Part shown: positions 8,762-29,744 of the stretch, in pieces | Position numbering within the stretch: the first letter of the stretch is position 1 | How the letters are laid out: every line of letters begins with the position of its first letter | Source of the DNA: Candidatus Saccharimonadota bacterium | Lineage (GTDB): Bacteria; Patescibacteriota; Saccharimonadia; Saccharimonadales; UBA4665 | Assembly (NCBI GenBank): GCA_963716945.1 | Contig: OY970322.1 | Location: 150,001 to 182,000, forward strand | Length of the DNA stretch: 32,000 bases | Direction of reading: 5' to 3' | Notes under the pieces: model-generated | Told to the model about the DNA's origin: nothing | The model's input: the letters and a program-made list of their open reading frames with translations, nothing else | The model's database searches: none | Translations under genes and position numbers: made by a program

Positions 8762-8796
8762 ACCGCTTTCGGCGGCCGGCTACGTATAATACGTGT

Positions 8797-16615: not shown

Positions 16616-18568
16616 TTATACGCTATCTGTACTGCCGGCGCTGCCGGGGTATAACCGGTTGCCGAGGTCGATTGTCCCTTGCGGCTGGCTGAAGTCCCCC
16701 GCTTCGTTGGCGGCCTCGGCCTCGATTGCCTGGACCTGTTCAGGGTTAGTCGTAATCAGGCCGGTTTCGGTCGGGCTGGCCACGACCTGGATATGGACGT
16801 GGTTTTGGCCGGCGAAAAACAGCCCCTGCCCGACGGGGAACTGGCTGAGGCGTTTGCGTTCCTCGCTGGTCAGCTTGAAGACTTCGGTCAGCACGTCGAC
16901 GGCCGTCGGCGACTGTTTCAGCAGGAACTGCATCGAGGCGTTGGCGACGATCGCCCGGCCCATCCGCGAACCCATGAAGTCCTCGACGTCCTGGCTGATA
17001 GTAGTGATGCCCAGGTTATATTTGCGGGCCCGCTTGGCCAGGCTGAACAGGAAGCTCGCCGAATCTTCATATTTCATAAGTTGCCAGGCCTCGTCGACGA
17101 TCAGGATACGGCGTTTCTGGTCGGTCTTCGTCTTGTTCCAAATGTAGTTGAGCACGATATACATGGCCACCGGCCGCAGCTCGTCCTCCAGGTCGCGCAG
17201 GTTAAAGACCACCAGCGGATTATTGATGTCGACGTTGCTCTGTTGCGAGAAGATACCGGCGAAAGTACCGGTGGTGTACTTGCGCAGCCGCTGGGCCAGT
17301 TGCGGCCCGGTACCGCCCATGTGCAGCAGCGTGTCATACAGGTCGACGATCGTCGGCGGTACGCCGGTGTGGGTCAGCGGGTCGTTGGTTATGCCGGCCT
17401 TGGCGTAGGTCTCGATCAGCGCCGCGTCGAGGTCGGCTTCTTCCGACGGCGCCAGCGGCGGCCCCATCGCGTTGGCGTTGGCGCCGGCCATCTGGATCTG
17501 GGCGCCGCCCATCATCAGGCGCAGCAGGCCGTGCAAAGTTATTAAGTTGCTTCTCAGGGCATTGTCGGCTTCTTCGGAGTCAACGACTTTTGGCAGGTCG
17601 AAGGGGTTAATACGAGTAGATGAATTCAAGCTCAGCCGGACATAGGCGCCGCCGACGGCGTCGCACATCCGCTCGTACTCGTTTTCGGGGTCGATAATAA
17701 AGATTTCGGTACCGAACATCATGCTCCGCAGGGCCTCCAGCTTAACCGTGAAGCTTTTGCCGGCGCCGGACTTCGCGAAGACCACCGAGTTGCCGTTTTC
17801 CAGCGAGAACCGGTCAAAAATGACCAGCCCCGAGTTGTGCATATTGATACCGTACAAAATCCCGTTGTCTTGGCTCAAGTCGGCGCTAGTGAACGGGAAG
17901 CTGGTGCTTAGCGCCCCGGTGCTCATGTTGCGTCGGATTTGCAATTGGTCGACCATTTGCGGCACCGTGCTGTTCAGGCCCTGCTCTTGCTGTGACGTCG
18001 CGGCCTTGCTGTAAACCAGCTGCTGTCCGAGCATCGACTCCACTTTGTGGGCCACGAACTCCAACTCTTCCATGCTGCCGGCATACAGCGTGAAGTACAG
18101 CCCGAACCGGAAGAAGCGCTCTTCGCCGACCTGCAGCTTGTCGCGCATTTCTTCGGCATCCTGGATCGCTGCTTCTTTGCCCGGGTCGCGGACCCGTCCC
18201 TTCTCGGCTTCGATTTGAATGCCGGCTTCCAGCTGGGTGACCTTCTTGCGCAAATTCTCGAGCACCACCTGGCTCTCGACAGGGTAAATGTACATGCTGA
18301 TATCAATCACTTCGTCCAGGTTGACCATGCTGCTCAGCCAGCCGGTATACAGCTGCCGGGGATAGCCGTAAACGTAGTAGGTCCGGGCATAACGCGTCCC
18401 GAGCTGGAAGTGGGTGTTGCTGAATTCCAGCGAACTGGGCGCTATGAAATCACGCAGCGCCGTAATCCCCTTCTGGAACGCCGCCTGAACCTCCTGTTCT
18501 TCGCGGGCGCGCTGGGCTTGGGCTACGGCTACCGGGTCCGGCGGCGGCTGTTTCTTCTTGCCGAACAT
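16616..18568 (-). CDS. virB4: VirB4/TraC/TrsE-family type IV secretion ATPase
   Basis: 650-aa ORF. Its N-terminal domain is VirB4-like (YARTYYVYGYPRQLYTGWLSSM). It has the Walker A FAKSGAGKSFT and the Walker B RRILIVDEAWQLM, followed by ARKYNLGITTISQDVEDF. Confidence 0.9.
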   Translation of the reverse strand: MFGKKKQPPPDPVAVAQAQRAREEQEVQAAFQKGITALRDFIAPSSLEFSNTHFQLGTRYARTYYVYGYPRQLYTGWLSSMVNLDEVIDISMYIYPVESQVVLENLRKKVTQLEAGIQIEAEKGRVRDPGKEAAIQDAEEMRDKLQVGEERFFRFGLYFTLYAGSMEELEFVAHKVESMLGQQLVYSKAATSQQEQGLNSTVPQMVDQLQIRRNMSTGALSTSFPFTSADLSQDNGILYGINMHNSGLVIFDRFSLENGNSVVFAKSGAGKSFTVKLEALRSMMFGTEIFIIDPENEYERMCDAVGGAYVRLSLNSSTRINPFDLPKVVDSEEADNALRSNLITLHGLLRLMMGGAQIQMAGANANAMGPPLAPSEEADLDAALIETYAKAGITNDPLTHTGVPPTIVDLYDTLLHMGGTGPQLAQRLRKYTTGTFAGIFSQQSNVDINNPLVVFNLRDLEDELRPVAMYIVLNYIWNKTKTDQKRRILIVDEAWQLMKYEDSASFLFSLAKRARKYNLGITTISQDVEDFMGSRMGRAIVANASMQFLLKQSPTAVDVLTEVFKLTSEERKRLSQFPVGQGLFFAGQNHVHIQVVASPTETGLITTNPEQVQAIEAEAANEAGDFSQPQGTIDLGNRLYPGSAGSTDSV

Positions 18569-18604: not shown

Positions 18605-19549
18605 TCATTGCAGCTCCCTCTGTAAGTGCGCTTGCGGCGCACTGCCCTGGCCTTTGGTAATGATATCGGCTGTCAGGTTGTTGAAATCCTTGAGCTGCTG
18701 CCGGGTGGCCGTATCCGGGTTATAGGTGTCGTAATACAGCTCGATCAGCTCCTGCGTGTCCAGCGGCAAGCCCTGTATGCTGCACTGCATCAAACCCGAC
18801 AGGACGGCCTGAACCCGGTTGCGCAACTCGGTTTTGGCATTTTCCAGGTCCGGCTCGTTGATAACGACATGCTGGTCTTTTTTGTTAAATAAACCGCCTA
18901 TGCCGCCCAGGAAATTCTTGCTTTGGGTCAGCGCCTTTTGCGTATCAACGACCGGGAAGAACGGGATCACGACGTAAAACTTCTTGTCCATGATGTTGGT
19001 CTGCTGACTAAGGTCGCCAATGTAGCCGATGTAGTCCTCCATAAGCAGTGCCAGCAGCATATTATCGTGCTCGGTGCGGATCTTATCGAGCTTGTTGATG
19101 TAGGGTGCCAGGTCGACTTTTTGCGAGCGCATGAAGATCTGGATCGGGAAATAAAGCGAGTTCAAAAACCCCTGGTAACTGTATTCGACCGCTTCTTGCT
19201 CCTGGCTGCTCATCAGGTCAAAGTTGATGCTCTTGACCATGACTACCGAACGGAACGACCCGTCGTTCATGATGACGATGCCGTCCCGAATTTCGGCAAT
19301 TTGCAAGGAGTTCTGAGTACTGTTGGGGTGCGGAGCCGGCTTGCCCGGCTTGTCGGCGCCCACCGTCGGCATGTTCAAGGGGGCCGGGGCGTTAGAGCCG
19401 TCAGGCGTGGTTACCGGCGCGATTGACTGCCCGGGTATCAGCGGTGACGGCAAAGGGGCGGCACTGACCGAGTCCGGCATGCCCACGGCCGGGGCGGCCG
19501 GCTGGTCGGGATTCGGCTGGTTTGGTGTCGTTTGTGTTGACGGATCCAT
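18605..19549 (-). CDS. Hypothetical protein; Pro-rich N-terminus followed by a VirB4 N-terminal-domain-like region with no ATPase motifs
   Basis: 314-aa ORF. aa 1-80 are P/A/S-rich. After that, IRDGIVIMNDGSFRSVVMVKSINFDLMSSQEQEAVEYSYQGFLNSLYFPIQIFMRS resembles the CagE/TrbE/VirB4 N-domain pattern. No Walker motifs are present. The resemblance was judged by eye only. Confidence 0.5.
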   Translation of the reverse strand: MDPSTQTTPNQPNPDQPAAPAVGMPDSVSAAPLPSPLIPGQSIAPVTTPDGSNAPAPLNMPTVGADKPGKPAPHPNSTQNSLQIAEIRDGIVIMNDGSFRSVVMVKSINFDLMSSQEQEAVEYSYQGFLNSLYFPIQIFMRSQKVDLAPYINKLDKIRTEHDNMLLALLMEDYIGYIGDLSQQTNIMDKKFYVVIPFFPVVDTQKALTQSKNFLGGIGGLFNKKDQHVVINEPDLENAKTELRNRVQAVLSGLMQCSIQGLPLDTQELIELYYDTYNPDTATRQQLKDFNNLTADIITKGQGSAPQAHLQRELQ

Positions 19550-19608: not shown

Positions 19609-20769
19609 TCAGTGTAATGAAATCATCACCTCGTTGCGCGGCTGATTTTCATCACCCCTGTTTTTCTGGGCCTCGCGAGCCAAAGTTGCCACATTAAGAT
19701 CGTCGTTCTTGGCCAAAGATATTATAGCAGGGTCACTGGTCGCTGTCACCGCAGGGCCTTGGGTGCCGGCCGCCGTTGGGGGCTGGGCGCCATCGTCGGC
19801 CCGGGCCGTTGTCGCCGGGGCGGCAGACGGCTGTACCGACACCGGGCTACCCAGGGGTTGGAGCGTACGCAAATTGCCGAATGACACCTGCCGTGAACTG
19901 GCTTGGGCCGCCAACCGGGCCGCCAGCTCGGCTTCTTCCGGCGTCGAATCGGCCGCTGCCGGAACCGGCGGAGCTGCCTGAACCGGAACCGCCGCTACTA
20001 CTGGCGGCTGCACCGGCACCGCCATAGCCGGTCCGCCGGCCGCTGCCGGAACCGCAGCCTGGACGTTATTCATGAACCAGTTGTTGCCGGCTCCGCCGGT
20101 CTGCTTGGCCGCCTCGTCCCGCCGCACATCGTTAAGCTGGTCGATGAGTTGTTGTCGATGATTGCGGCTTGAACGGTCGATCATGGTGTTAAACTGCTGG
20201 GCAATCGGGTTGTTGGTTTCGTCCAGCATGTCATCGGCGGCCGGCATGTCGTCCGCCGGCACTTCTTGAGGAATACTGCCGATGTCGATTAGGCGGTCCG
20301 AGTCAGTATCGGCGACTACAGGTGCGTAGATGCCGTCGCCGACGTTCTTAGTTGCCCAGCCGCGGCTATCGATAGTATCGGCCAGTGCCCGTAACCGGCT
20401 CTTTACCTCGGTTTGGCTAAGCCCGTTTGTCAGCACCCGCTCGACTTTCTTAGGCACCGTAATAGTTACCAGCTCCTTGACGCCACTCTGGTTCCAGATC
20501 CGCCGCCGGGGCTTGAACCAAAACCGCAGCTTAGCCAGCGCCCAAGTTTCGGTCGGCTGGTCCCGCCCGAACGGAAAGGCAAAAAACGCGCAAAACAAAG
20601 CCGGCGGCAAAAACAGCACCAGCAAAAACGCCACATGCTTAGTTACCAGGATAAAACAGATGTAGAACAGAAATACGGCAACCAGTGCGAAGATAAACTG
20701 CCGCAGCGTCAGCGGCCCCAGGATTTTGTCCTCAGCCTCGATATCCTGAATCAGTTTGTATGTTGCCAC
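19609..20769 (-). CDS. PrgI/VirB3-like two-TM T4SS membrane protein with a long C-terminal extension
   Basis: 386-aa ORF with a GTG start. The N-terminus IQDIEAEDKILGPLTLRQFIFALVAVFLFYICFILV plus a second TM match the PrgI-family pattern of Gram-positive T4SSs. The C-terminal ~300 aa include an Ala/Pro/Val-rich tract. Confidence 0.65.
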   Translation of the reverse strand: MATYKLIQDIEAEDKILGPLTLRQFIFALVAVFLFYICFILVTKHVAFLLVLFLPPALFCAFFAFPFGRDQPTETWALAKLRFWFKPRRRIWNQSGVKELVTITVPKKVERVLTNGLSQTEVKSRLRALADTIDSRGWATKNVGDGIYAPVVADTDSDRLIDIGSIPQEVPADDMPAADDMLDETNNPIAQQFNTMIDRSSRNHRQQLIDQLNDVRRDEAAKQTGGAGNNWFMNNVQAAVPAAAGGPAMAVPVQPPVVAAVPVQAAPPVPAAADSTPEEAELAARLAAQASSRQVSFGNLRTLQPLGSPVSVQPSAAPATTARADDGAQPPTAAGTQGPAVTATSDPAIISLAKNDDLNVATLAREAQKNRGDENQPRNEVMISLH

Positions 20770-20815: not shown

Positions 20816-22576
20816 CTAGCCTATCGAACGTGCCCGCTGGAACCGCCGGCCTATGGCGTTGAAGTCCCGCTTGCCCAGCCTGTGTCCCGGCGTGCCTGAG
20901 GTAACGGTTTGCAGGATGTCCACGACTTCGTTCTTAACGAAGGCCGGCAAATGTAAGGCGTTCAAGGCGTTCCAATCAAGACTGTAAATATCGGGCACCT
21001 CATTAACGGTGTCATTACCCTTTTTGTCATGGCCCAGGATTTTTTCGGCAGGCTTCGTAACTACCAGCACCGTGTCGGCGACCCGGCGGCCGATCAGGTC
21101 GTCAATGACCATACGCTGGACGCGGCGGGCCTCCTCGGGGTCTTGGTCAAAGGGGTCGCCGACTTTGACCCCAAAGTCGTCGTGCTTCTGGAACTCATCT
21201 TCCAATTCCCGGGGATGCTTAGATAAGTAACGCTGTTCCATCAGCTGCCAAAGCATCGTGCCCAAGCTGGAGTCTTCTGCGTTTTGCTCAAGGCCGAAAT
21301 CTTTCAGCGCCTCGGTGTATTCGTAAGTCATGCGGCTGGCCATGTCGATCACGGCGTTTTTGCCCAGCTCGGCGACCGTTTGTTGCAGGAGCCGCACGTA
21401 TTTTTCCAGGAACTGCTCGCCCTGCGTTCTGATCCGGTCGGCCACTACCAGCCTGTCCCTATAAATATCGTCAAAATGGAAAATGTCCTCGTAGGACAGG
21501 AGAGCAATAGCCTGCTCATCCGGCAGCCACCGCTCATTGGGGTCGCCTTCCCGGCTGCTATCCGGTCCTTCAATCCAGTCTTCGCGGCCCGTCATCACGA
21601 AACTGGTACTTATCCGGCCGATACTTGAGATAACCGACGGCTGGGGGCCTTTTTCGGGGATTTCGGCCTTTAAATCACTCAGCGATTCGCCCATGTTGTT
21701 GAGGTGCTTCTTCAAGCCGTCGTCTTTGTAAACCCGCTGGTGGGTAGCGTCGCCGGCCGCGTTGTAAGTCTTGACCACGAAGGTCCGCACCGGGTACTTG
21801 TGGCCTTCAGGGCCTTCCATCAACAGAGTGTCTTCAGTCACGCGCTGGAGGTCGCCGTTGACCCTCCAGCTGACACCTGTCAAGCCCAGGCCCAGGCGCT
21901 CCTGGTGTTCGATGACGGTGTCGAAAACCTTCTTGTCGGGATTGGTTAACTTAATGTCGCGTACCTCGCGGCTGGCGCCGCGGCCCGGCCGTTCGCCCGG
22001 CTCCTGCCAACCGAATCCGGTGAACCATTCGAAAGGCGTGAATTCGTCGCTCGGGTGGTCAAGCCAGTCTGCCAGCTCGCCGTCATTGTAGCCGATTATG
22101 TCAGCCGGCTCGCCGTCGGGGCTCGTTACTTTGACGGTCCAGCGTTTTCCGGTGCCGTGGTTGAGAACGATTTTCTTTTTCTCGGCCCGGCCGATGTAGG
22201 GGCCGCCCCTCAAGGTGCTTCTGGCCCGGGGCCGCCACATGCCGGTCGGCTTGGCTTCTTTGGTAGTTACGGCGTAGGCGTCATAATCCGAGAATTCATA
22301 AACCTGGCCATTGCGGTCGCGCAGCCAGAAGCCCCTGAGGTCGGGACGGCCGGCGGCTTCGCCCATTTCCGTTACCTGTTCGGAAATCAGTCTTAGGGGG
22401 TCGAACTCCCTGCGCATCGTTGAAAGAACGATCTCGGTACCTGGCCCGGCCGCGGCGTGCGGCAAAGTGTGCACCTCCGTCGTAGGCGGTAAGTGGGCGG
22501 GTATGATTTCAGTCGTCGGCTCACCTGCCGGAGGCGGTTGTCGTACTAGTTCGGTCGAGGTTTCGGGTGATGCCAT
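20816..22576 (-). CDS. Hypothetical soluble protein (no recognisable domain)
   Basis: 586-aa ORF with no TM segments or signal peptide. It is the dominant frame across the interval. It is preceded by a consensus promoter and embedded in the T4SS-like operon. Confidence 0.6.
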   Translation of the reverse strand: MASPETSTELVRQPPPAGEPTTEIIPAHLPPTTEVHTLPHAAAGPGTEIVLSTMRREFDPLRLISEQVTEMGEAAGRPDLRGFWLRDRNGQVYEFSDYDAYAVTTKEAKPTGMWRPRARSTLRGGPYIGRAEKKKIVLNHGTGKRWTVKVTSPDGEPADIIGYNDGELADWLDHPSDEFTPFEWFTGFGWQEPGERPGRGASREVRDIKLTNPDKKVFDTVIEHQERLGLGLTGVSWRVNGDLQRVTEDTLLMEGPEGHKYPVRTFVVKTYNAAGDATHQRVYKDDGLKKHLNNMGESLSDLKAEIPEKGPQPSVISSIGRISTSFVMTGREDWIEGPDSSREGDPNERWLPDEQAIALLSYEDIFHFDDIYRDRLVVADRIRTQGEQFLEKYVRLLQQTVAELGKNAVIDMASRMTYEYTEALKDFGLEQNAEDSSLGTMLWQLMEQRYLSKHPRELEDEFQKHDDFGVKVGDPFDQDPEEARRVQRMVIDDLIGRRVADTVLVVTKPAEKILGHDKKGNDTVNEVPDIYSLDWNALNALHLPAFVKNEVVDILQTVTSGTPGHRLGKRDFNAIGRRFQRARSIG

Positions 22577-22689: not shown

Positions 22690-25600
22690 TTACTGATGGT
22701 GGGCGGCGTCTTCTTGGGCTTTCCTGGCTTGTTCGGCCGCGTCCTGCTGTTGTTTGGCTTGCTCTCTCGGGTCGTAGCTTCTCGGTTCCGGCAGCGGGAC
22801 GCCTTCTTTGCGAAGCTCTTCGGCCATGTCGCTCCACTCGGCCTTGGCGCCGGTGTCGTTGTAGCCGTAGGGGCCAGCCTGGTTGACGATAAGGTCTTGC
22901 ATGGTCCGGGCCTCCGCCGTGTAGTTGCCCTGGGCGTCTTTCTCTCTGGCGATAGCCATGTTGGTCAGGCGGGCCGATTGGACGGCTTCGGCCTTGGCGC
23001 CGGTCCAGTCGGATGCCTTGATGCTCATGGCGTTGGACTTGGCAGCAGCCGACTCCGGCCTGTCGAAGACGGAGTAGAAACTGCCCTTCTTGCCGGTGGC
23101 TTTGCCGGTCATGTCGACCATGACGCCATGACCCCACCTGGTCTCAGGCCTTAGACGGGCGCCGGCATCGGAAGCTTTCTTGACGACGCTCTGGGCGTAA
23201 GAGTGGCCGCCGCCTTTGCCCTTGCGCGCGGCGATGGAGTTGCCGATCTCGGCCAGGTCGTTGGTTTCGGCGCGTCCGGCATTAGCTAAGCCGAGCGCAC
23301 CCATTGTCTGAATATCGGCTCGGAAGAGCTCGGGGTTGTTGCTGATATTGGCCAAAGTACCACGGGCGGTGTGGAGGCCGGCTGCCGCCAGCTGCTCCTT
23401 TTCCTTGTCGCTGCTTGCTAGGATCTCAGTAATTTTGTCAATGTCCTTGAGTGACCTAGGAGCTCTTGCAACGCCTGTTTCTTTGTCAATAAAGCCTTCG
23501 TTTATAAGTGCTTGCTGGGTGTCCTGGCTGAAACCACGATACGAACCTGACAATGCACGCCAAGCTTCGTAGTGCATGCCGCCCTTGGACTCGATTTCCT
23601 GCCAGCCCTTGGTGCTGTGGTCGATCATGGCGTCGTCGATCTTGTTCTCTATGCCGGCCGCGAAGCGCTTGAAGCCGGGCGTGCCCTTTTGGCCGAGTTT
23701 GCCGGGCACCATTTCATCGGCATCGAAGGCCCATTCGGCCATTCGGCTGCCGATCCTGCCGATACTCCGGCCCTTATTGCCGAAGCGGCCGAATTCGGGG
23801 TTCCACAAGTAGCCGGCCCGGGCGCGCTGGATACGGCCGGCTGTGTGTTCTTTGCGCTTCTTGCTCAAGAAGCCGTAGCCGCCTTGGGCGCGGCTATTGA
23901 CCAGGTTGGCCATGCCGCTTAAGGCGCCGCCGGCAAACCGGAAAGTCATCGGAATCATTAAATAAGGCGCGAAGTAAGCTATAAAACCGATTATCTGGCT
24001 CAAGATATCGCTGCTCTGGTTGACGGCGATAGCCGAAAATACCCGCCCGGCGGCGATGAAACCGGCGATTAGCGGGAACATCAATAGGGCCTTGCTGAGG
24101 GATTCCCACCAGAGCTTGAAGACCCTCTGGGTATTGGGGTTAGGCAATATGTAGGCGGCCAAACCGATAGGCGCCAGGATGATCAGCATGATAATGGCTA
24201 TCTGCCGCAAAATCAGGGTTGCGAAACCGACCAGTACCGCCAGGGCGGCCATGCCGACAAAAGTCAGTAAACCGAATACGCCCATAGCAACGCCCACGAT
24301 GGTGGGGATTAAGACCGCGCCGCTTTGCGCCAAACTGAGATGGATGCTGGTATTGATGCCGACGAAGGGCTGCTCGATCAGGTATCTTATGCCGAAGCCC
24401 AAGTCATTCGTCAGTGTCACGAAGAAATCCATCAGCTGCCAAGACAAAGCGATGCCGATGGTCGCTATCAACAGCCTCGGCAACACCTTGCGAATCGTAT
24501 AGGCGTCCAATATTTCAAGGCCGAGGGCCTGGGCTATCAAGACTAGCAAAGTAGCCATGGCTATCAGGCCGAGCGCGATGTCGCGGAAGTGCGACCAAGC
24601 CGTTTTATAGGCGTCACATTGGCCGCCCGTGCCGCAAGAACCGTTGCTATCGGCAAATATTTGATTGGGGTCATCCGAATTGCCGTTGGTACCTACGGAA
24701 AGCTGGCTGTTAATTGCGTCGTCAAGGGCGCTGACTATGCCGACCAGGCCTTTGACGATACCGCAGATCAGCCAGTTCAACGGGTTAAGACCGGCATGGC
24801 AACTTAATGACAGGTCCTGGCTGGGGTTGCTGGCCGCGCCGGCCCCGCCGACGGGGCTGCTGCCCGGCGCCTCGTCGCTGGCCAGTTTACCGTCGGCACC
24901 TTTCGGATCGCCTATCTGGATAGGGATGCTGCCACTCTGATAACAGCCCTGCCCGTCGCTGCTAAGTGTCGCGCCGGTAATATTGGATGGGAAACCGGTC
25001 GATAGAGGATTGTCGCTGGAGCTGTTTTTGATAACCAGGGTTCCGTCCGCCGGCCAGCCCGAGGCTCCCGTAATCTGGCTTTGGCAGGTACTGTTGTAGC
25101 TTCTGCCGCTGGTGGCGAGGTAAGGGTCGCTGCCCGGGCTGCTCTGCGTGAAGACTATAGCCGTTTGGTCCGAAGTGCTGATGGTGCCGCTGTCCTGCCA
25201 GGTAAAGTAATAGTTAAAGCCTGCCGGGTCGGAATCGGGACTCAAGGTTATCGGGTCGTCGGTTTCAATACAATTATTATTGCCCCCGCCGGGAATGCTG
25301 AAGAGATGGATGGTGGCCGTCGCCGTGGCGTTCTGATAGTTGGAGCCGTCCGAGTTGGGGAAACCGTTAATGTAGTTCTTGGATGTGCAGCTGTCGCTTG
25401 CGTTCTGGATTTTGAAGTTCAGGTCATTGTCTTCTTTGTTATCGTAGTAGGTATCGCTGCCGACAGTGATGTGGCTGTGGTCGACCCACTGGCCGGTCTG
25501 TTTGGGCTGAGGGTTGTTGATGGTTATGGCGCCGTAGCGCGTCACGCCCAAAAGGCCGCCGCAATCGGCTTCGATAGTCGCCGCCGAAGAGCCGTCTTTG

Positions 25601-25893
25601 TGGTCATCGGTATAGATATATAGTTCCGGACAACCGTTGCCGTCCGGCCCTAGCGAGCCGTTGCCGTTGAAGTAAACGCCGGTGGGATACTTCTTGGTGT
25701 CGACGCCTTTCTTGGTGTAGGTCAGGGTGCTGCTGGTATCGGCCGGGTCGGGGCCGATGACCGCCTGGTTGCCGTCGGTGTAGCGGTACGTGCCGTTTAC
25801 GGCTGCGGTTTTTGCCGGCCAAAAAGAGGACAATAAGACTATTGCCAAAGGCAAGGCCGCCAACCAGAGTTTCTTGTCGCTCATATGTTTCAT
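22690..25893 (-). CDS. VirB6/TrbL-like polytopic channel protein with large N-terminal ectodomain and C-terminal extension
   Basis: 1067-aa ORF. It has a signal peptide (LPLAIVLLSSFWPAKTAA/V) and a ~400-aa Cys-containing secreted region. At least 5 TM helices lie at about aa 437-655 (LIAMATLLVLIAQALG, LLIATIGIALSWQLMDFFV, AIIMLIILAPIGLAAYIL, and others), as in TrbL/VirB6. A ~400-aa hydrophilic C-terminus follows. Confidence 0.7.
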   Translation of the reverse strand: MKHMSDKKLWLAALPLAIVLLSSFWPAKTAAVNGTYRYTDGNQAVIGPDPADTSSTLTYTKKGVDTKKYPTGVYFNGNGSLGPDGNGCPELYIYTDDHKDGSSAATIEADCGGLLGVTRYGAITINNPQPKQTGQWVDHSHITVGSDTYYDNKEDNDLNFKIQNASDSCTSKNYINGFPNSDGSNYQNATATATIHLFSIPGGGNNNCIETDDPITLSPDSDPAGFNYYFTWQDSGTISTSDQTAIVFTQSSPGSDPYLATSGRSYNSTCQSQITGASGWPADGTLVIKNSSSDNPLSTGFPSNITGATLSSDGQGCYQSGSIPIQIGDPKGADGKLASDEAPGSSPVGGAGAASNPSQDLSLSCHAGLNPLNWLICGIVKGLVGIVSALDDAINSQLSVGTNGNSDDPNQIFADSNGSCGTGGQCDAYKTAWSHFRDIALGLIAMATLLVLIAQALGLEILDAYTIRKVLPRLLIATIGIALSWQLMDFFVTLTNDLGFGIRYLIEQPFVGINTSIHLSLAQSGAVLIPTIVGVAMGVFGLLTFVGMAALAVLVGFATLILRQIAIIMLIILAPIGLAAYILPNPNTQRVFKLWWESLSKALLMFPLIAGFIAAGRVFSAIAVNQSSDILSQIIGFIAYFAPYLMIPMTFRFAGGALSGMANLVNSRAQGGYGFLSKKRKEHTAGRIQRARAGYLWNPEFGRFGNKGRSIGRIGSRMAEWAFDADEMVPGKLGQKGTPGFKRFAAGIENKIDDAMIDHSTKGWQEIESKGGMHYEAWRALSGSYRGFSQDTQQALINEGFIDKETGVARAPRSLKDIDKITEILASSDKEKEQLAAAGLHTARGTLANISNNPELFRADIQTMGALGLANAGRAETNDLAEIGNSIAARKGKGGGHSYAQSVVKKASDAGARLRPETRWGHGVMVDMTGKATGKKGSFYSVFDRPESAAAKSNAMSIKASDWTGAKAEAVQSARLTNMAIAREKDAQGNYTAEARTMQDLIVNQAGPYGYNDTGAKAEWSDMAEELRKEGVPLPEPRSYDPREQAKQQQDAAEQARKAQEDAAHHQ

Positions 25894-26043: not shown

Positions 26044-26072
26044 TTGTCAATGGGTAGCTTAAGCTCTATAGT
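26044..26072 (+). promoter_or_regulatory. Putative promoter of the pilin-like gene array
   Basis: TTGTCA (26044-26049)-N17-TATAGT (26067-26072) sits in the divergent intergenic region. The -10 ends only 9 nt before the ATG at 26082. Confidence 0.4.
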
Positions 26073-26081
26073 TATATAAAA

Positions 26082-26882
26082 ATGAACATTACAACACACA
26101 AAGCCAAAAAAATAATCAGGAAAGTCAGCGGTCCGCTGGCCGGTTTCCTGGCTGCCGTGTTCATCTTGGCGCCATCGGTAGCCCTGGCCGCATCGCAGGT
26201 GTATGGCATAGCCTGCGCCAACAGTGACGTCAAGGTCAGCACCCACTCCGCGGCCTGTGCCGATAAGTCGGCAACCCTCAGGCTGTATGAGATCGGCAAC
26301 AAAAACCCTGAGAAACCCTACCCCTCCGGCTACGGCATAACGGTAGTAACGGTTGATTGCGGCAGCAGCAGTCCGACTACCCCCCTGCTGAACGGCCCCG
26401 TCAAGTTTAGTTGCAAGAAATCATCAATCAAGCCGACGCTCAAAGGCGCCACGATCATCCAGCATGCCGGCTCGGTCAGTCCCAGCGGCAGCCTTGGCGG
26501 CCAAGTCACCTGTGACCCGACGACCGATGCTACCTGCCCGGTTTGCCAGAGCAGCAATCCGCCGTCCGGCTGTGTCGACTGCAGCAACGGCACCTGTTCG
26601 GACCCGGCGGCCAACCCGGACGTTTCCTGCAGCGATAACGGCTGTGATTTGATATCCAAGTATCTTGACCCGTTTATTAACCTGTTCTCGGTGACCTTCG
26701 GTTTTATAGCCGTAGCCTCTATTATTATGGGGGGTATTCAATACGCGTCCTCGACCGGCGATCCGCAAAAGGTGACGGCGGCCAAACAACGTATTACCAA
26801 TACCCTGATCGCCTTAGTGGCTTATTTCTTCCTTTACGGCTTCCTGCAGTTCTTGATACCGGGAGGCGCATTTAACAGATGA
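26082..26882 (+). CDS. T4SS pilin-like protein 1 (VirB2/TrbC-like C-terminal module fused to a Cys-rich ectodomain)
   Basis: 266-aa ORF with a signal peptide (ILAPSVALA/AS). A ~190-aa region carries many Cys (...TCDPTTDATCPVCQSSNPPSGCVDCSNGTCSDPAANPDVSCSDNGCD). The C-terminus is helix-loop-helix: FGFIAVASIIMGGIQYASSTGDPQKVTAAKQRITNTLIALVAYFFLYGF. Confidence 0.7.
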   Translation: MNITTHKAKKIIRKVSGPLAGFLAAVFILAPSVALAASQVYGIACANSDVKVSTHSAACADKSATLRLYEIGNKNPEKPYPSGYGITVVTVDCGSSSPTTPLLNGPVKFSCKKSSIKPTLKGATIIQHAGSVSPSGSLGGQVTCDPTTDATCPVCQSSNPPSGCVDCSNGTCSDPAANPDVSCSDNGCDLISKYLDPFINLFSVTFGFIAVASIIMGGIQYASSTGDPQKVTAAKQRITNTLIALVAYFFLYGFLQFLIPGGAFNR

Positions 26883-26889
26883 GAAACCA

Positions 26890-27276
26890 ATGCTAAATAC
26901 ACTGTTATCAATCGTGGCAACGGATGCTTGCGACAAGTCCGGCGACTTCTTCGGCCTGCTGCCCTGGTACCATTACTTGCCGCCGGGTGATTTCAGCGGC
27001 TGCGACCTGGTTAACTTCAACTTCCTGCCAAGCTCTAGCGTAGCCAGCGACGTGCCGCTGGTGATGTTGGCGGTTATCGATGATTTGTTGCGTATAGCCG
27101 GCATCGTGGCGATTGCTTTCGTCATCGTCGGGTCGGTAAGATACATAACCAGCCAGGGCAATCCGGAGCAGACGGCCCAGGCCCAGTCAACTATTATTAA
27201 CGCTTTGATCGGCACGGCCATAGCTATAGCGGCCGCGACCTTTGTCGGCTTCGTCGGCAGCCAGTTGGGAGGTTAG
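26890..27276 (+). CDS. T4SS pilin-like protein 2
   Basis: 128-aa ORF with the C-terminal module AGIVAIAFVIVGSVRYITSQGNPEQTAQAQSTIINALIGTAIAIAAATFV. The N-terminal part has 2 Cys and LLPWYHYLPP. Confidence 0.7.
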   Translation: MLNTLLSIVATDACDKSGDFFGLLPWYHYLPPGDFSGCDLVNFNFLPSSSVASDVPLVMLAVIDDLLRIAGIVAIAFVIVGSVRYITSQGNPEQTAQAQSTIINALIGTAIAIAAATFVGFVGSQLGG

Positions 27277-27277
27277 A

Positions 27278-27592
27278 ATGGGAATTATTTTTCGGATCTT
27301 GGCAGAATCGGTAAGCGCCGGTAACCTGCCGGGAGCACCTACGCCGGCGGATCCCAACCCCGTCAGCCTGACCAGCGTGGCCGCTTTGCAAACCATCCTG
27401 GGCGTAGTCTTCGGTATAATCGGGGCCCTGGCGCTCCTGATCATAACGGTTTCCGGACTTCGCTATATAACTTCGGCCGGCGATCCGGAAAAGACGACCA
27501 GGGCCAGAAACGGTATCATCTATGCTCTCATTGGCCTGGTTTTGGCCATATCGGCCGAGGCGATAGTATCATTCGGAGTTAACCGGCTATGA
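27278..27592 (+). CDS. T4SS pilin-like protein 3
   Basis: I place the start at ATG 27278 (104 aa), preceded by GGGAGG and lying just after the upstream stop. The track's start at 27242 is less likely. The module is FGIIGALALLIITVSGLRYITSAGDPEKTTRARNGIIYALIGLVLAISAEAIV. Confidence 0.7.
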   Translation: MGIIFRILAESVSAGNLPGAPTPADPNPVSLTSVAALQTILGVVFGIIGALALLIITVSGLRYITSAGDPEKTTRARNGIIYALIGLVLAISAEAIVSFGVNRL

Positions 27593-28032
27593 TCAGGCGA
27601 TTATCTCTGGCTGTAGCCCTGCTGGTCTTATGCTTGTTTGCGGCGCCGCGGCCGGCGGCGGCTTATGACATATTCGGCGGTGTTAATTGTTCGGCCAACG
27701 GCAACTCCAGCTCCGCCTCCAATTCGGCGGTCTGCCAGGGCCAGCCGGCAACCGATCCTACAACCGGCAAGGCGGCCGACCCCATAGGCGGCGCCAACGG
27801 CCTACTGGCCAAGATCACCAATATCGTGGCCTATGCCGGCGGCGCCGCGGCCATTATCCTGGTAATTGTCAGTGCTTTGCGCTTCGTGACCTCGGGCAGC
27901 GATGTCAGCACCAGCTCGCGTACCGATACCGATGTCGAGAATGCCAGGCGCAGCCTTAGCAGCGCCCTGATCGGTTTGGCCATTATCGTTCTGGCCCGCA
28001 CATTAATATTATTTGTACTGAAAAAGGTGTGA
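27589..28032 (+). CDS. T4SS pilin-like protein 4 (loop-insertion variant)
   Basis: 147-aa ORF with a signal peptide (FAAPRPAAA/YD). The module is AAAIILVIVSALRFVTSGSDVSTSSRTDTDVENARRSLSSALIGLAIIVLART, with an ~8-aa longer inter-helix loop. It overlaps the upstream gene by ATGA. Confidence 0.65.
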   Translation: MIRRLSLAVALLVLCLFAAPRPAAAYDIFGGVNCSANGNSSSASNSAVCQGQPATDPTTGKAADPIGGANGLLAKITNIVAYAGGAAAIILVIVSALRFVTSGSDVSTSSRTDTDVENARRSLSSALIGLAIIVLARTLILFVLKKV

Positions 28033-28042
28033 AGGAGAGACT

Positions 28043-28483
28043 ATGAAACGGATTATCTTAAACATAACGGCGCTTTTGCTGCTCGCCATAGTGCCGGCCG
28101 CGGCGCTGACAGGCGCGGCTTATGCGGCGGGGTGCGGTACGCCTTCGACGCCCAAAACCCAGGTGCTGAATGGCATCGGCGAAACCGGCAGCAACTGCGA
28201 TGACAGCGGTGTCGCTAACGCTATCTCGGCTGGCGTTAATATCTTGAGTCTGGTGGTCGGCGTGGCCGCTGTCATGATGGTCATACTCAGCGGGTTCAAA
28301 TACATAACGTCCGGCGGCGAGGCCAGCAAGGTTTCCAACGCCAAGAACAGCCTGGTTTACGCCTTAATCGGTTTGTTCATCGCGGCTCTGGCGCAGCTGC
28401 TGGTGCACTTCGTCCTCGCGCAGTCGACTGTCGCCGCCTGCCCGCCCGGCAGCAAGGACGCCGCCTGCCAGCCGGCCCACTAG
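28043..28483 (+). CDS. T4SS pilin-like protein 5
   Basis: 146-aa ORF with a signal peptide (LTGAAYA/AG). The module is VGVAAVMMVILSGFKYITSGGEASKVSNAKNSLVYALIGLFIAALAQLLVHFVL. GGAGAG lies upstream of the ATG. Confidence 0.7.
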   Translation: MKRIILNITALLLLAIVPAAALTGAAYAAGCGTPSTPKTQVLNGIGETGSNCDDSGVANAISAGVNILSLVVGVAAVMMVILSGFKYITSGGEASKVSNAKNSLVYALIGLFIAALAQLLVHFVLAQSTVAACPPGSKDAACQPAH

Positions 28484-28498
28484 GGAGCTTCAGGTTAC

Positions 28499-28527
28499 TT
28501 GATTCCGCTAAAGCCTTGTAGTATAAG
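28499..28527 (+). promoter_or_regulatory. Possible internal promoter ahead of pilin-like gene 6
   Basis: TTGATT (28499-28504)-N17-TATAAG (28522-28527) lies in the only sizeable gap (74 nt) of the pilin array. Confidence 0.35.
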
Positions 28528-28557
28528 TTAAGTAGACTTAAAGAAAGGTTTAGAGAA

Positions 28558-29022
28558 ATGATTCAAAAGATCAAAACTTATATGTACATGGCGGCCGGAA
28601 CCATAATGCTGGCTTTGCCGCTGCTGGTATCAACTGCCGCCGCGTCCGCGGTAGCCGACTGTAACCAAGTCAGCTCCGGCATCGCCAACGGCGTCAACCA
28701 GGCGACAGGCACCAGCAGCAGCAACCCCAACGCCGTCGACTGTTCCTCGAGCAGCGTTAACGGCAGCACGATCGGTACCGCCGCTAAGGGACTGGTGAAC
28801 GTCTTCTCTATCATCGTCGGTGTCGTGGCCGTGGTCATGATCATCTACGGCGGCTTTCGCTACATTACTTCCGGCGGCGACAGCGGCCGGGTCGGCAACG
28901 CCAAGAACAGCCTGATTTACGCCATCGTCGGATTGGTTATCGTAGCCCTGGCGCAGCTGATTGTGCACTTTGTCCTGGGCCAGACTAACAGTATCCAGAC
29001 TAACGTCACCGCTCCGCAATAA
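28558..29022 (+). CDS. T4SS pilin-like protein 6
   Basis: 154-aa ORF with a signal peptide (VSTAAASA/VA). The module is VGVVAVVMIIYGGFRYITSGGDSGRVGNAKNSLIYAIVGLVIVALAQLIVHFVL. This is its closest match to gene 5, including long identical DNA runs. Confidence 0.7.
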   Translation: MIQKIKTYMYMAAGTIMLALPLLVSTAAASAVADCNQVSSGIANGVNQATGTSSSNPNAVDCSSSSVNGSTIGTAAKGLVNVFSIIVGVVAVVMIIYGGFRYITSGGDSGRVGNAKNSLIYAIVGLVIVALAQLIVHFVLGQTNSIQTNVTAPQ

Positions 29023-29089: not shown

Positions 29090-29569
29090 TTATAAGACTT
29101 GGATTTTCTTAACCGTGTCCTGCTGGACTTTGCCGAAGCTGATGGTCAGGACGCCGTCTTTCAGGACGGCTTCGATCTCTTCTTCCTTGACGGGTACGGG
29201 CAAAGCAATGGTGCGGCTGAACTCGCCCCAGTAGCATTCCTGCAAGAAGTAATTCTCCACGCCGTCTTCGCTGCCTGAGCTGAGAGTGCCCCGGATTGTC
29301 AGCTGGTTGTCGGAAATACTGACGTCGAGGTCATTCTTATTAACGCCGGCGGTGCGGGCTTTGACGACCAGCTTCTCGCGTGTTTCATAAACGTCGACTG
29401 CCAGCTGGCCCGGCACGGTGTCGTCTTCGTCCCATTCGTCTTCCGCTATCGGGGAGCCGGCAGGTTCGGCCACAGCGTCAACCGGCTCGGCCGTGTCATC
29501 GCCCAGAAAGGCCGCCGTTAATTCGTCTTCTTCGAGCAGGAGATCGTCGTCGCGGTTACGTCGCGCCAT
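29090..29569 (-). CDS. Hsp20/alpha-crystallin family small heat-shock protein
   Basis: Alpha-crystallin domain motifs are present: AVDVYETREKLVVKARTAGVNKNDLDVSISDNQLTIRG and FSRTIALPVPVKEEEIEAVLKDGVLTISFGK. I prefer the ATG at 29569 (MARRNRDD), which is preceded by GGAGGG. The track's GTG at 29587 would contain that Shine-Dalgarno. Confidence 0.85.
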   Translation of the reverse strand: MARRNRDDDLLLEEDELTAAFLGDDTAEPVDAVAEPAGSPIAEDEWDEDDTVPGQLAVDVYETREKLVVKARTAGVNKNDLDVSISDNQLTIRGTLSSGSEDGVENYFLQECYWGEFSRTIALPVPVKEEEIEAVLKDGVLTISFGKVQQDTVKKIQVL

Positions 29570-29744
29570 GGTAGTGTTACCCTCCACTAAATTAATTGCC
29601 GTCTTGGCTGTCTGTCACCCCGCTAAAGCTTGGGGAATCGAGAAAGATTAAAAACCTTGCGTTTTTGTATTAGTAGCAGTATAGCTTAGGCGGTAAAGCC
29701 TGCGCAACGTGCCGGACACTTATTTACAACACATTAAACACAAC

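Follow-up and report, generated by a model that had tools for sequence, protein, structure and literature searches.

A six-gene array of VirB2-like pilin-family genes next to the type IV secretion genes of a Saccharimonadales genome holds six conserved positional classes

Six consecutive open reading frames stand in tandem on the plus strand of a 32,000-nucleotide stretch of an uncultivated Saccharimonadales genome (the window; G+C 54-61%, with environmental MAGs as relatives), and the question that they raise is whether they encode interchangeable versions of one protein or distinct parts of one machine. The genes g1 to g6, which occupy array positions p1 to p6 within 26082-29022, are as follows.

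26082..26882, plus strand: g1 (p1), 266 aa; PF18895 28.9 bits, NF045849 38.5 bits
26890..27276, plus strand: g2 (p2), 128 aa; PF18895 40.3 bits
27278..27592, plus strand: g3 (p3), 104 aa from the ATG at 27278; PF18895 52.2 bits, NF045849 44.0 bits
27589..28032, plus strand: g4 (p4), 147 aa, signal-like N-terminus; PF18895 29.9 bits
28043..28483, plus strand: g5 (p5), 146 aa, signal-like N-terminus; PF18895 42.8 bits, TrbC 22.2 bits
28558..29022, plus strand: g6 (p6), 154 aa; best PF18895 score of the six, 59.5 bits

Alignment confirmed the proposal of an earlier note on this DNA, at the same coordinates, that the six ORFs end in a common C-terminal module (helix, short loop, helix) and diverge in their N-terminal parts, which could not be aligned. 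Pairwise module identity was 20-61% (mean 34%), with g5 and g6 the closest pair at 61%, and the likeness among the six is, judged from their sequences, far beyond chance. The motifs proposed for the module were somewhat too strict: G-[GS]-[ILF]-[RKQ]-[YF]-[IVA]-[ST]-S-x-G-[DNE] was exact in g1 and g6, with the other four differing at 1-3 positions, and [AT]-L-I-[GA] fitted five of the six, g6 having AIVG. Among window ORFs of at least 60 aa, a relaxed motif form was found in the six array ORFs only.

By Kyte-Doolittle scan, the sole method used for this purpose, each module contained two hydrophobic segments, and g1, g4, g5 and g6 began with a signal-like hydrophobic segment. The third protein had been described as leaderless-looking, and the scan found no signal-peptide-like segment in it; g2, passed over in that description, likewise gave no hydrophobic N-terminal segment or clear signal peptide. 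g3 is the shortest array member; a start at the TTG at 27242 would lengthen it to 116 aa, but gene callers choose the 104-aa form. The Cys-rich N-terminal part attributed to gene 1 was borne out, with all 12 Cys of g1 lying upstream of the module; the protein runs from a signal-like N-terminus through a beta-rich ectodomain (about residues 38-130; pLDDT >90 over 41-130 in the AF2 model) and a Cys-rich linker to the helical hairpin module at 190-258. The loop insertion seen in gene 4 appeared in the alignment as 7 aa between the helices and was present in 9 of 33 measurable p4 orthologues. Four of the inter-helix loops (g1, g3, g5 and g6) have a net basic charge; those of g2 and g4 are net neutral, so the predicted hairpin topology is less secure for these two. 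The AF2 model of g6 has two long helices, at 69-104 and 112-150.

All six proteins exceeded the gathering cutoff of PF18895 (T4SS_pilin; curated cutoff 26.6 bits), with 28.9-59.5 bits and E-values of 1e-6 to 3e-16. All six also matched NF045849 ('Mbov_0395 family pilin-like conjugal transfer protein'; E 1e-11 to 2e-4) over 57-74 of its 80 model positions (71-72 for g1, g3 and g6), with g3 above and the other five below its equivalog cutoff of 40, and with g1 scoring higher there than on PF18895. The Mycoplasma ICE Mbov_0395 pilin-like protein resembles those of the window in belonging to a monoderm and to MPF_FATA-related systems, but its gene is a single one on a mobile ICE and is not known as part of a six-gene chromosomal operon. 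Matches of g1-g6 to PF04956 (TrbC/VirB2) were in register and sub-threshold (14-22 bits; cutoff 27.9), and 35 of 55 g6 orthologues matched that family at E<=1e-3. The 2717 homologues of g6 are mostly from Saccharimonadales, with the source names 'pilin' or 'type IV secretion system pilin'. Comparison by hhalign with seven real MPF_T VirB2/TrbC proteins gave an in-register alignment at E 0.04-0.1 and about 1% probability, a profile search of PDB sequences had no pilin among its matches, and Foldseek found nothing significant in the PDB and no match to solved pilins; direct similarity to bona fide VirB2 is weak. What the window shares with the diderm MPF_T pilins (A. tumefaciens VirB2, RP4 TrbC) is the signal peptide, two hydrophobic helices, a short loop with basic residues and a place beside VirB3- and VirB4-like genes. 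It differs from them in having six genes and not one, a monoderm host, two members without a leader, longer mature parts with N-terminal ectodomains of 35-190 aa that often carry a Cys pair, and in that none of the six proteins reached the PF04956 threshold.

The neighbourhood of the array comprises the following genes.

10546..13125, minus strand: multidomain cell-wall hydrolase (3D, Beta-lactamase2 and CHAP domains), VirB1/PrgK role
13145..16579, minus strand: 1144-aa protein without an assigned family, at the SEML1_0007 position by synteny with strain ML1
16616..18568, minus strand: VirB4-type ATPase (PF19044, E 7e-27; AAA_10; DUF87)
18605..19549, minus strand: TraC-like/TrsD-like protein resembling the VirB4 N-terminal domain (precomputed PF26593)
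19609..20769, minus strand: PrgI, VirB3-like (PF12666, E 9e-12)
20816..22576, minus strand: 586-aa protein without an assigned family, placed in the T4SS cluster by position only
22690..25893, minus strand: VirB6/TrbL-like polytopic membrane protein, 1067 aa (PF19590 TrbL_3, precomputed for an identical locus)
29090..29587, minus strand: Hsp20 small heat-shock protein (PF00011), convergent with g6

The PrgI/VirB3, VirB4 and cell-wall hydrolase cluster lies about 3 kb from dnaA-dnaN-recF. The TraC-like protein matched NF041427 TrsD weakly (E 7e-7, far under the curated cutoff), the 586-aa protein had no Pfam or NCBIfam match and the 1144-aa protein no Pfam match, and no VirB5, VirB7, VirB9, VirB10, relaxase or coupling protein was found in the window. 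The VirB6-like gene is divergent from the array, and 51 of 54 related loci have a homologue of it upstream of their arrays; PrgI was found in 40 of the 41 related loci with enough flank, and an Hsp20 gene adjoined the array in 72 of 73. The PF18895 result, the sub-threshold PF04956 matches and the adjoining VirB6-, PrgI/VirB3- and VirB4-like genes uphold the VirB2/TrbC-like identity first proposed, and support the reading of g1-g6 as VirB2-like T4SS pilin-family genes beside a T4SS. These family matches and the VirB6-like and PrgI linkage speak against what the earlier note had named as fatal to its proposal, namely proteins with no similarity to VirB2/TrbC-type pilins, or ordinary membrane proteins unrelated to the adjacent secretion genes. 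That the six are small integral membrane proteins of this ordinary kind, set beside T4SS genes by chance, is highly improbable: low-information two-helix hairpins do match tetraspanin, cytochrome bd subunit II and DctQ weakly and spuriously, and some JGI annotations of homologues carry such misnomers, but all six passed a curated family threshold, their linkage is conserved, and their ML1 orthologues are co-essential with T4SS genes.

The array has a published counterpart in Southlakia epibionticum ML1, where the six pilins SEML1_0014-0019, all matching PF18895 (Table S2 of PMC10633639), were each essential by Tn-seq, called GD/ES/ES (Wang 2023, PMC10633639). The six-pilin array also appears in PMC12102498 and in the review PMC12857230, which terms it essential and proposes a pilus-like conduit. 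As the array was already in the literature and its essentiality had been demonstrated in a cultivated relative, the six-gene finding is correct but not new, and the contrast that had been drawn with single-pilin T4SSs does not make it unusual for this lineage. The two loci are syntenic gene by gene, in order and strand: dnaA-dnaN-recF, T4SS genes on the minus strand, six PF18895 genes on the plus strand, Hsp20 on the minus strand and a comF-like gene on the plus strand. In each array the third pilin is the smallest, with 103 aa in ML1 and 104 aa in the window, and a spacer precedes the sixth (83 nt and 74 nt, respectively). The lengths of p1 (266 aa in the window, 132 aa in ML1) and p2 (128 aa and 185 aa) differ, and therefore the ectodomains differ, and in place of the 586-aa ORF of the window, the ML1 cluster contains a second large polytopic protein together with one non-essential gene of 837 bp. 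SEML1_0013, the counterpart of the VirB6-like gene, was matched to TrbL/VirB6 by fold, SEML1_0007, the counterpart of the 1144-aa protein, has a C-terminus with a DD-peptidase-like fold, and the ML1 Hsp20 orthologue is essential. Essentiality of the pilins is established for ML1 only, and for the genes upstream of p6 some of it may stem from polarity on p6; orthology with ML1 makes it probable that epibiotic growth depends on the system. We consider it rather probable, as a joint claim, that the window array is the orthologue of this published six-gene VirB2-like pilin operon of an origin-proximal chromosomal Saccharibacteria (TM7) T4SS and that it works by the mechanism proposed below.

In 321 of 324 comparisons among 54 species-level genomes, all with complete arrays, a gene had its best inter-genome BLAST hit at its own array position, and gene order was invariant. 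The comparison of copy number and dN/dS across relatives that had been suggested for this array gave six genes in 46 genomes, seven in 7 and five in 1, and a dN/dS against the closest relative of 0.07-0.13 for all six genes (modules 0.02-0.07, N-terminal parts 0.08-0.19). The extra gene of the seven-gene arrays was of p5/p6 type and at the 3' end in all seven; the single five-gene array had an apparent p2-p3 fusion. Mean pairwise identity within classes was 0.20-0.34 for the N-terminal ectodomains against 0.41-0.72 for the modules, with p6 highest (0.72) and the other classes at 0.41-0.54. A signal-like segment was present in 96-100% of p1, p4, p5 and p6 orthologues, in 33% of p2 and in 17% of p3, and p1 orthologues had their last ~85 aa conserved, with ectodomain types varying between lineages. 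These data show p1-p6 to be six ancient paralogue classes in fixed order, under purifying selection and linked to VirB6-, PrgI/VirB3- and VirB4-like genes. The sixth gene is also set apart by expression signals, which together span 28499..28548.

28499-28527, plus strand: conserved promoter-like element TTGATT-N17-TATAAG, in the g5-g6 spacer
28540-28548, plus strand: Shine-Dalgarno AAAGAAAGG, in the g5-g6 spacer before p6

As a strict pattern (a consensus match), the p6 promoter-like element occurred in 28 of 54 loci against a background of 0.032 per kb, and a score of at least 9 of 12 was reached in 73% of g5-g6 spacers versus 8% of coding controls. Median intergenic gaps were -1, 0, -4 and 10 nt along p1 to p5, from which translational coupling of p1-p5 is predicted, and 72 nt before p6. 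New here are the positional orthologue classes, their purifying selection, the extra copies at the p5/p6 end only, the status of p6 as the most conserved class with its own conserved promoter-like element and Shine-Dalgarno, the mostly leaderless p2 and p3, and the lineage-variable p1 ectodomain.

These results bear on whether the array supplies alternative pilins, a repertoire of interchangeable or differentially expressed members for antigenic or host-range variation, as has been proposed for Bartonella and Anaplasma VirB2 paralogues and, in PMC12102498, suggested for Patescibacteria. Within-array divergence is indeed high, the ectodomains evolve faster than the modules and the p1 ectodomain type depends on lineage. 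However, the positional orthology with invariant order, the low dN/dS (<=0.19 even in the ectodomain-bearing N-terminal parts), the absence of cassettes or of repeats close to identity (the best at the DNA level, g5 against g6, has 71% nucleotide identity over 189 nt), the predicted coupling of p1-p5 and the individual essentiality calls in ML1 make a repertoire unlikely. Bartonella and Anaplasma phagocytophilum also have tandem VirB2-family genes beside a T4SS used for host interaction and not conjugation, but those arrays are lineage-specific amplifications tied to antigenic variation (as cited in PMC12102498), whereas the window copies are ancient, order-fixed and under purifying selection. 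The same paper catalogues 441 'VirB2 arrays' of 2-11 genes in Patescibacteria (Quinonero-Coronel 2025, PMC12102498), near virB4 and dnaA as here, where six of six pass the PF18895 threshold; it gives a within-array identity of 25% on average and 54% at most, to which the mean here (34% in the module, lower at full length) comes close. It takes pilin diversity as a possible means of coping with varied host strains, where we find conserved orthologue classes under purifying selection, and in the passages searched no mention was found of orthology between array positions. Of the three functional options in the earlier note, positional orthology, dN/dS and array sizes thus disfavour the variation repertoire and favour a heteromeric structure in which g1 is distal and accompanied by minor pilins; the data speak for major, minor and distal subunits of a single machine, none of the six redundant with another.

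In the mechanism that we propose for such a machine, p1, p4, p5 and p6 would enter the membrane via Sec with cleavable signal peptides, p2 and p3 would insert leader-free, and all six would fold as hairpins with both termini outside and the loop inside. The VirB4/VirB6/PrgI machine would then extract the six to build a single heteromeric structure that contacts the host bacterium, either a conduit across the envelope or a short pilus. p6 may be the bulk (candidate major) subunit, because it is the most conserved, has its own promoter-like element and strong Shine-Dalgarno, and the p5/p6 type alone is duplicated; p1 may be a low-copy distal, host-contacting subunit, because its ectodomain is large, lineage-variable and Cys-rich; and p2-p5, whose overlapping or abutting genes would lead to coupled amounts of product, may be minor or adaptor subunits. 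We infer these major, minor and tip roles only from conservation and expression signals. Type IV pili and T2SS pseudopili offer a functional analogy, with an abundant subunit, co-encoded low-copy paralogues and a large potential cap subunit, but their fold and assembly machine are unrelated.

A less probable reading, though one that deserves weight, is that all six proteins stay in the envelope as stoichiometric parts of the T4SS translocon (stalk or channel lining) and polymerise into no pilus, after the model of pilin-like proteins from the ICEs of wall-less Mycoplasma and of pilus-less monoderm MPF_FATA systems. Systems of the monoderm MPF_FATA lineage, to which this T4SS belongs, are generally without pili (PMC10633639, PMC12102498), the NF045849 matches and the Foldseek result fit this reading, and six fixed, non-interchangeable classes suit a defined complex as well as a fibre. 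Against it, the p6 expression signals and p5/p6-type duplication suggest one subunit in excess, typical of a polymer, the large variable p1 ectodomain, predicted to be secreted, suggests exposure to the outside, and cryo-EM of another Patescibacterium has shown tubular structures that 'may be T4SS pili' at the host interface (bioRxiv 10.64898/2026.06.21.733656).

A further promoter-like site was found before g1.

26044..26072, plus strand: promoter-like site TTGTCA-N17-TATAGT (consensus scan, 10 of 12 matches)

This site ends 9 nt before the g1 ATG and has no Shine-Dalgarno, a spacing from which the g1 transcript is possibly leaderless. As a strict pattern, the layout occurred at g1 in 11 of 62 related loci, compared with 0-1 at the other five array positions.

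Six consecutive ORFs on the + strand, numbered g1 to g6 in order, had been read in an earlier note on this DNA as VirB2/TrbC-like pilin paralogues sharing one two-helix module. Multiple alignment confirmed the shared module, with the common part confined to the last ~75 residues of each protein, downstream of an N-terminal ectodomain.

g1, 26082-26882, + strand, pilin-family ORF
g2, 26890-27276, + strand, pilin-family ORF
g3, 27278-27592, + strand, pilin-family ORF (alternative TTG start at 27242)
g4, 27589-28032, + strand, pilin-family ORF
g5, 28043-28483, + strand, pilin-family ORF
g6, 28558-29022, + strand, pilin-family ORF

Two hydrophobic segments were found in every module by Kyte-Doolittle scan and were predicted as a hairpin of two long helices in the AlphaFold2 models of g6 and g1, with an intervening loop of the form [GS][GSA][ILFV][RKQ][YF][IVA][ST]S.[GS][DNE] ... 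A[KRQ]. The loop, read from the sequences, carries a net charge of +2 in all but g2 and g4, where it is neutral. The loop motif as first written holds literally for g1 and g6 and is off by 1-3 positions in the other four; slightly relaxed, it matches exactly g1-g6 and no other window ORF of at least 60 aa. Module identity among the six ranges from 20 to 61% (mean 34%), the closest pair being g5 and g6, whose DNA is 71% identical over 189 nt. The individual features described earlier also stood, as g1 carries 12 cysteines, every one upstream of the module, and g4 has a loop insertion of 7 residues. Judged from hydropathy and charge, a signal-peptide-like N-terminal segment is present in g1, g4, g5 and g6 and absent from g3, which had been described as leaderless-looking, and likewise from g2, which had gone unmentioned. 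The TrbC/VirB2 architecture of signal peptide, two helices and basic loop is thus seen for the hairpin in all six, with the leader absent in g2 and g3. A 116-aa form of g3 from the TTG start was rejected as the source of a leader, as the hydrophobic segment is absent from it too and gene callers choose the 104-aa ATG form.

All six proteins cleared the curated PF18895 (T4SS_pilin) gathering cutoff of 26.6 bits, with whole-protein HMM scores of 28.9, 40.3, 52.2, 29.9, 42.8 and 59.5 bits for g1 to g6, and 55/55 scanned g6 orthologues matched the family too, which bears out the reading of the six as T4SS pilins. The match to TrbC/VirB2 itself (PF04956) was divided, with sub-threshold scores of 14.4-22.2 bits for g1, g2, g3, g5 and g6, no match for g4 and none of the six reaching the gathering cutoff of 27.9 bits, but with 35/55 of the g6 orthologues matching at E<=1e-3 (best 4.8e-7). 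When aligned by hhalign to a purpose-built alignment of seven genuine VirB2/TrbC proteins from MPF_T plasmids, the helix-loop-helix fell in register at a non-significant E of 0.096 for the g6-class alignment and 0.04 for the six-paralogue alignment (probability ~1%). Searching the PDB by Foldseek with the AlphaFold2 models of g6 and g1 yielded no significant match, and a g6-orthologue profile searched against PDB sequences returned no pilin, its sole return being a spurious cytochrome bd (E=2.8). The direct evidence for the module as a VirB2 homologue is therefore weaker than the family name implies; the link is supported by the PF04956 matches in the g6 orthologues, by the architecture, by conserved linkage with VirB3/4/6-like genes and by the published fold-based annotation of Southlakia epibionticum ML1.

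The only NCBIfam family returned, for all six, was NF045849, 'Mbov_0395 family pilin-like conjugal transfer protein', with scores of 44.0 (g3), 38.5 (g1), 33.3 (g6), 26.5 (g5), 22.8 (g2) and 20.9 bits (g4). Only g3 passes its equivalog cutoff of 40 bits, and the score of g1 exceeds its own PF18895 score, so that by these models g1-g6 are related to the family but are not members as equivalogs. As NF045849 describes a protein of a Mycoplasma ICE, matches to it from all six suggest that co-option from diderm systems is not required to account for the pilins, and they fit uneasily with the statement, in the survey of Quinonero-Coronel et al. 2025, that MPF_FATA systems lack VirB2-like genes (PMC12102498). 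A plasmid-borne source is without evidence, since tblastn of g3 against 72,556 plasmids gave zero matches.

An opposite-strand T4SS cluster begins 188 nt upstream of g1, and its PrgI, VirB4-type ATPase and TrbL_3-like genes all lie less than 10 kb from the pilins, in agreement with the earlier view that the array adjoins secretion genes. The features below are given in order away from g1, followed by two ORFs on the pilin strand.

22690-25893, - strand, 1067-aa polytopic protein, TrbL_3/VirB6-like by precomputed Pfam PF19590 on the identical contig
20816-22576, - strand, 586-aa protein inside the cluster, no Pfam/NCBIfam family at E<=0.01
after the 586-aa ORF, opposite strand to the pilins, PrgI (VirB3-like)
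after PrgI, opposite strand to the pilins, TraC-like protein
after the TraC-like protein, opposite strand to the pilins, VirB4-type ATPase
13145-16579, - strand, 1144-aa protein inside the cluster, no Pfam/NCBIfam family at E<=0.01
10546-13125, - strand, cell-wall hydrolase with 3D, class-A beta-lactamase-like and CHAP domains
after the hydrolase, opposite strand to the pilins, Big_5 exported protein
2203-3726, + strand, 507-aa ORF, no Pfam/NCBIfam family at E<=0.01
30446-31918, + strand, 490-aa ORF, no Pfam/NCBIfam family at E<=0.01

PF19590 was seen in a precomputed 1052-aa gene call and was absent from the local-Pfam hmmscan of the 1067-aa ORF, a discrepancy that could reflect the Pfam version or the start site. 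Beyond the cluster lie recF, dnaN, dnaA, rnpA, yidC and jag, which places it on the chromosome adjoining the replication origin. Neither a relaxase nor a coupling protein was detected in the window, which also gave no matches in Rfam and tRNA scans. To our knowledge, monoderm T4SSs are normally without a pilin, which makes the array the most unusual feature of the Saccharibacterial T4SS.

This arrangement is that of ML1, whose published order runs dnaA, dnaN, recF, - strand T4SS genes, six + strand pilins, - strand Hsp20 and + strand comF-like gene (PMC10633639 Table S1), with synteny to the window from dnaA through the comF-like gene. The window likewise has the six-pilin operon layout of Wang et al. 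2023, with a divergent VirB6-like gene, an origin-proximal VirB4/PrgI cluster and Hsp20 after the pilins; the ML1 hydrolase counterpart differs, having lysozyme-like domains and a cysteine proteinase domain. The six ML1 pilins, SEML1_0014-0019 (132, 185, 103, 126, 127 and 138 aa, + strand; PMC10633639 Table S1), are all assigned to PF18895 (PMC10633639 Table S2). The Patescibacteria survey reports, across 383 assemblies, 441 VirB2 arrays each holding 2-11 genes, with a mean within-array identity of 25%, enriched in Saccharimonadia and often near dnaA (PMC12102498). The published operon and these arrays mean that the interpretation in the earlier note was right and its object already known: the window array is orthologous to a system already published and reviewed, and is no new kind of object.

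To compare relatives, an HMM of the six window modules was run against every ORF in the fetched loci. An exact copy of the g6 protein is found on a 1.10-Mb NCBI contig and on a Logan contig of the same gene order. The 2717 g6 homologues and 80 fetched species-representative loci came almost all from Saccharibacteria/Saccharimonadales MAGs, and where sources name the g6 homologues they are called 'pilin' or 'type IV secretion system pilin'. Three loci (L002, L021 and L064) carry Saccharimonadales-type arrays on contigs labelled as Dormibacterota, Verrucomicrobiia and Limnocylindria MAGs, and these contigs are probably mis-binned. Of the 54 arrays that are not truncated at the edge of a contig, 46 contain six genes, seven contain seven and one contains five. 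In the seven-gene arrays (L062, L066, L068, L071, L077, L078 and L079) the extra copy is always at the 3' end and of p5/p6 type (p1-p6 being the orthologue classes at positions 1 to 6), with the p5 slot itself classed as p6-like in four of them, while in the five-gene array (L070) the p2/p3 place is taken by a 220-aa ORF (8467-9129) containing two pilin modules, perhaps a natural fusion of p2 and p3, perhaps an assembly error. The layout recurs in relatives, with a VirB6-like gene upstream in 51/54 loci and Hsp20 adjacent in 72/73.

For the 54 loci that have exactly six genes, the best inter-genome BLAST match was at the same array position in 321/324 cases, the three exceptions being p5 matching p6; the six genes are thus ancient orthologue classes in fixed order and not recent amplifications. 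Measured against L002, the closest relative (77-88% amino-acid identity), dN/dS was 0.07-0.13 for all six genes, the modules giving 0.02-0.07 and the N-terminal parts 0.08-0.19. No cassette-like or near-identical repeats able to drive gene conversion turned up in the repeat search. The possibility raised earlier, that the array is a repertoire for host-range or antigenic variation, is disfavoured by this positional orthology, fixed copy number, purifying selection and absence of recombination substrates, and by the ML1 orthologues having each been called GD/ES/ES, individually essential, by Tn-seq (PMC10633639), ML1 being the only strain for which a pilin requirement for epibiotic growth is known and the organism of the window being uncultivated. 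On the same counts the array does not fit VirB2 amplification of the Bartonella/Anaplasma type, with its recent lineage-specific copies, variable number and diversifying selection. The comparison instead predicts six conserved, ordered, non-redundant parts.

The classes also differ from one another. Signal-like segments were found in 96-100% of p1, p4, p5 and p6 orthologues, 33% of p2 and 17% of p3; mean pairwise module identity was by far highest in p6 (0.72, against 0.41-0.54 in the other classes); and the median number of cysteines upstream of the module was two in p2, p4, p5 and p6. The p1 orthologues have their C-terminal ~85 residues in common, with an invariant C...C/GCDLI...GDPQK...FLQFLIPGG, and differ in ectodomain type. 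The AlphaFold2 model of g1 has a confident beta-rich domain at residues 41-130 (pLDDT >90), left without a fold class by the lack of a significant Foldseek match, followed by a poorly predicted Cys-rich linker and then the hairpin.

Genes p1 to p5 overlap or abut (median gaps -1, 0, -4 and 10 nt), and p6 is preceded by an AT-rich spacer of ~72 nt median; a terminator scan of the array gave nothing exceeding expectation. In the window this spacer holds a strongly conserved element, TTGATT-N17-TATAAG at 28499-28527 (+), in extended form TTGATT-N17-(TGTAG)TATAAG, followed before g6 by a Shine-Dalgarno sequence, AAAGAAAGG, at 28540-28548 (+). The strict pattern occurred at 28/54 loci, compared with 0.032 per kb in the background, an enrichment inflated by the control being coding DNA that is GC-richer than the spacers. 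An artefact of AT-rich spacers is opposed by the recurrence of the same hexamers and Shine-Dalgarno in genomes (L002-L081) with a protein identity of only ~50%, and the element looks like an internal promoter giving extra p6 expression. Upstream of g1, TTGTCA-N17-TATAGT starts at 26044 (+) and stops 9 nt short of the ATG, the 26044-26084 region lacks a Shine-Dalgarno, and this layout (-10 box 7-9 nt from the ATG) was found at p1 in 11/62 loci and at p2-p6 in 0-1. The short distance and missing Shine-Dalgarno hint at a leaderless p1 message. Both elements are consensus matches, from which we infer promoter function.

Most economically, the six proteins are read as non-redundant subunits of a single envelope structure associated with the T4SS. 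Hairpins sitting N-out/loop-in/C-out would be mobilised by the adjacent VirB4/VirB6/PrgI machine, with p6 as the abundant subunit, p1 as the distal, host-facing one and p2-p5 as minor subunits produced in coupled amounts. Such a division of labour, suggested by the positional-orthology and promoter analyses, has not so far been proposed in the literature, which only speculates on a pilus (PMC12857230), and predicts that p6 is an abundant shaft subunit, that p1 is a host-specific distal subunit and that p2 and p3 insert without a signal peptide. Together with the role of the T4SS itself it is where the remaining interest lies, the Saccharibacterial system being the only T4SS reported as essential for its bearer's life, with a function 'completely unknown' (PMC11665869).

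We hold more tentatively, leaning somewhat against it, that the six classes are ordered into one heteromeric fibre or conduit of VirB2 type, in which p1, from a leaderless mRNA, would be the cap that touches the host, p2-p5 would make up a priming or adaptor complex, with two of the four inserting without signal peptides, and p6 would form the shaft. If true, it would be a first both as a multi-pilin T4SS filament and as a T4SS pilus of a monoderm, used by the epibiont to draw material from its host. A short wall-spanning stalk or other non-pilus structure is a live alternative to an extended pilus, in keeping with a T4SS of monoderm MPF_FATA ancestry and with pilins resembling the Mycoplasma ICE protein of NF045849, but tubular structures that 'may be T4SS pili' have been described in another Patescibacterium (bioRxiv 10.64898/2026.06.21.733656). 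The tight conservation, beside six hydrophobic hairpin proteins, of the Hsp20 gene (29090-29587, - strand, convergent with g6), whose ML1 orthologue SEML1_0020 was called essential (PMC10633639), raises the possibility that Hsp20 serves as a chaperone here.
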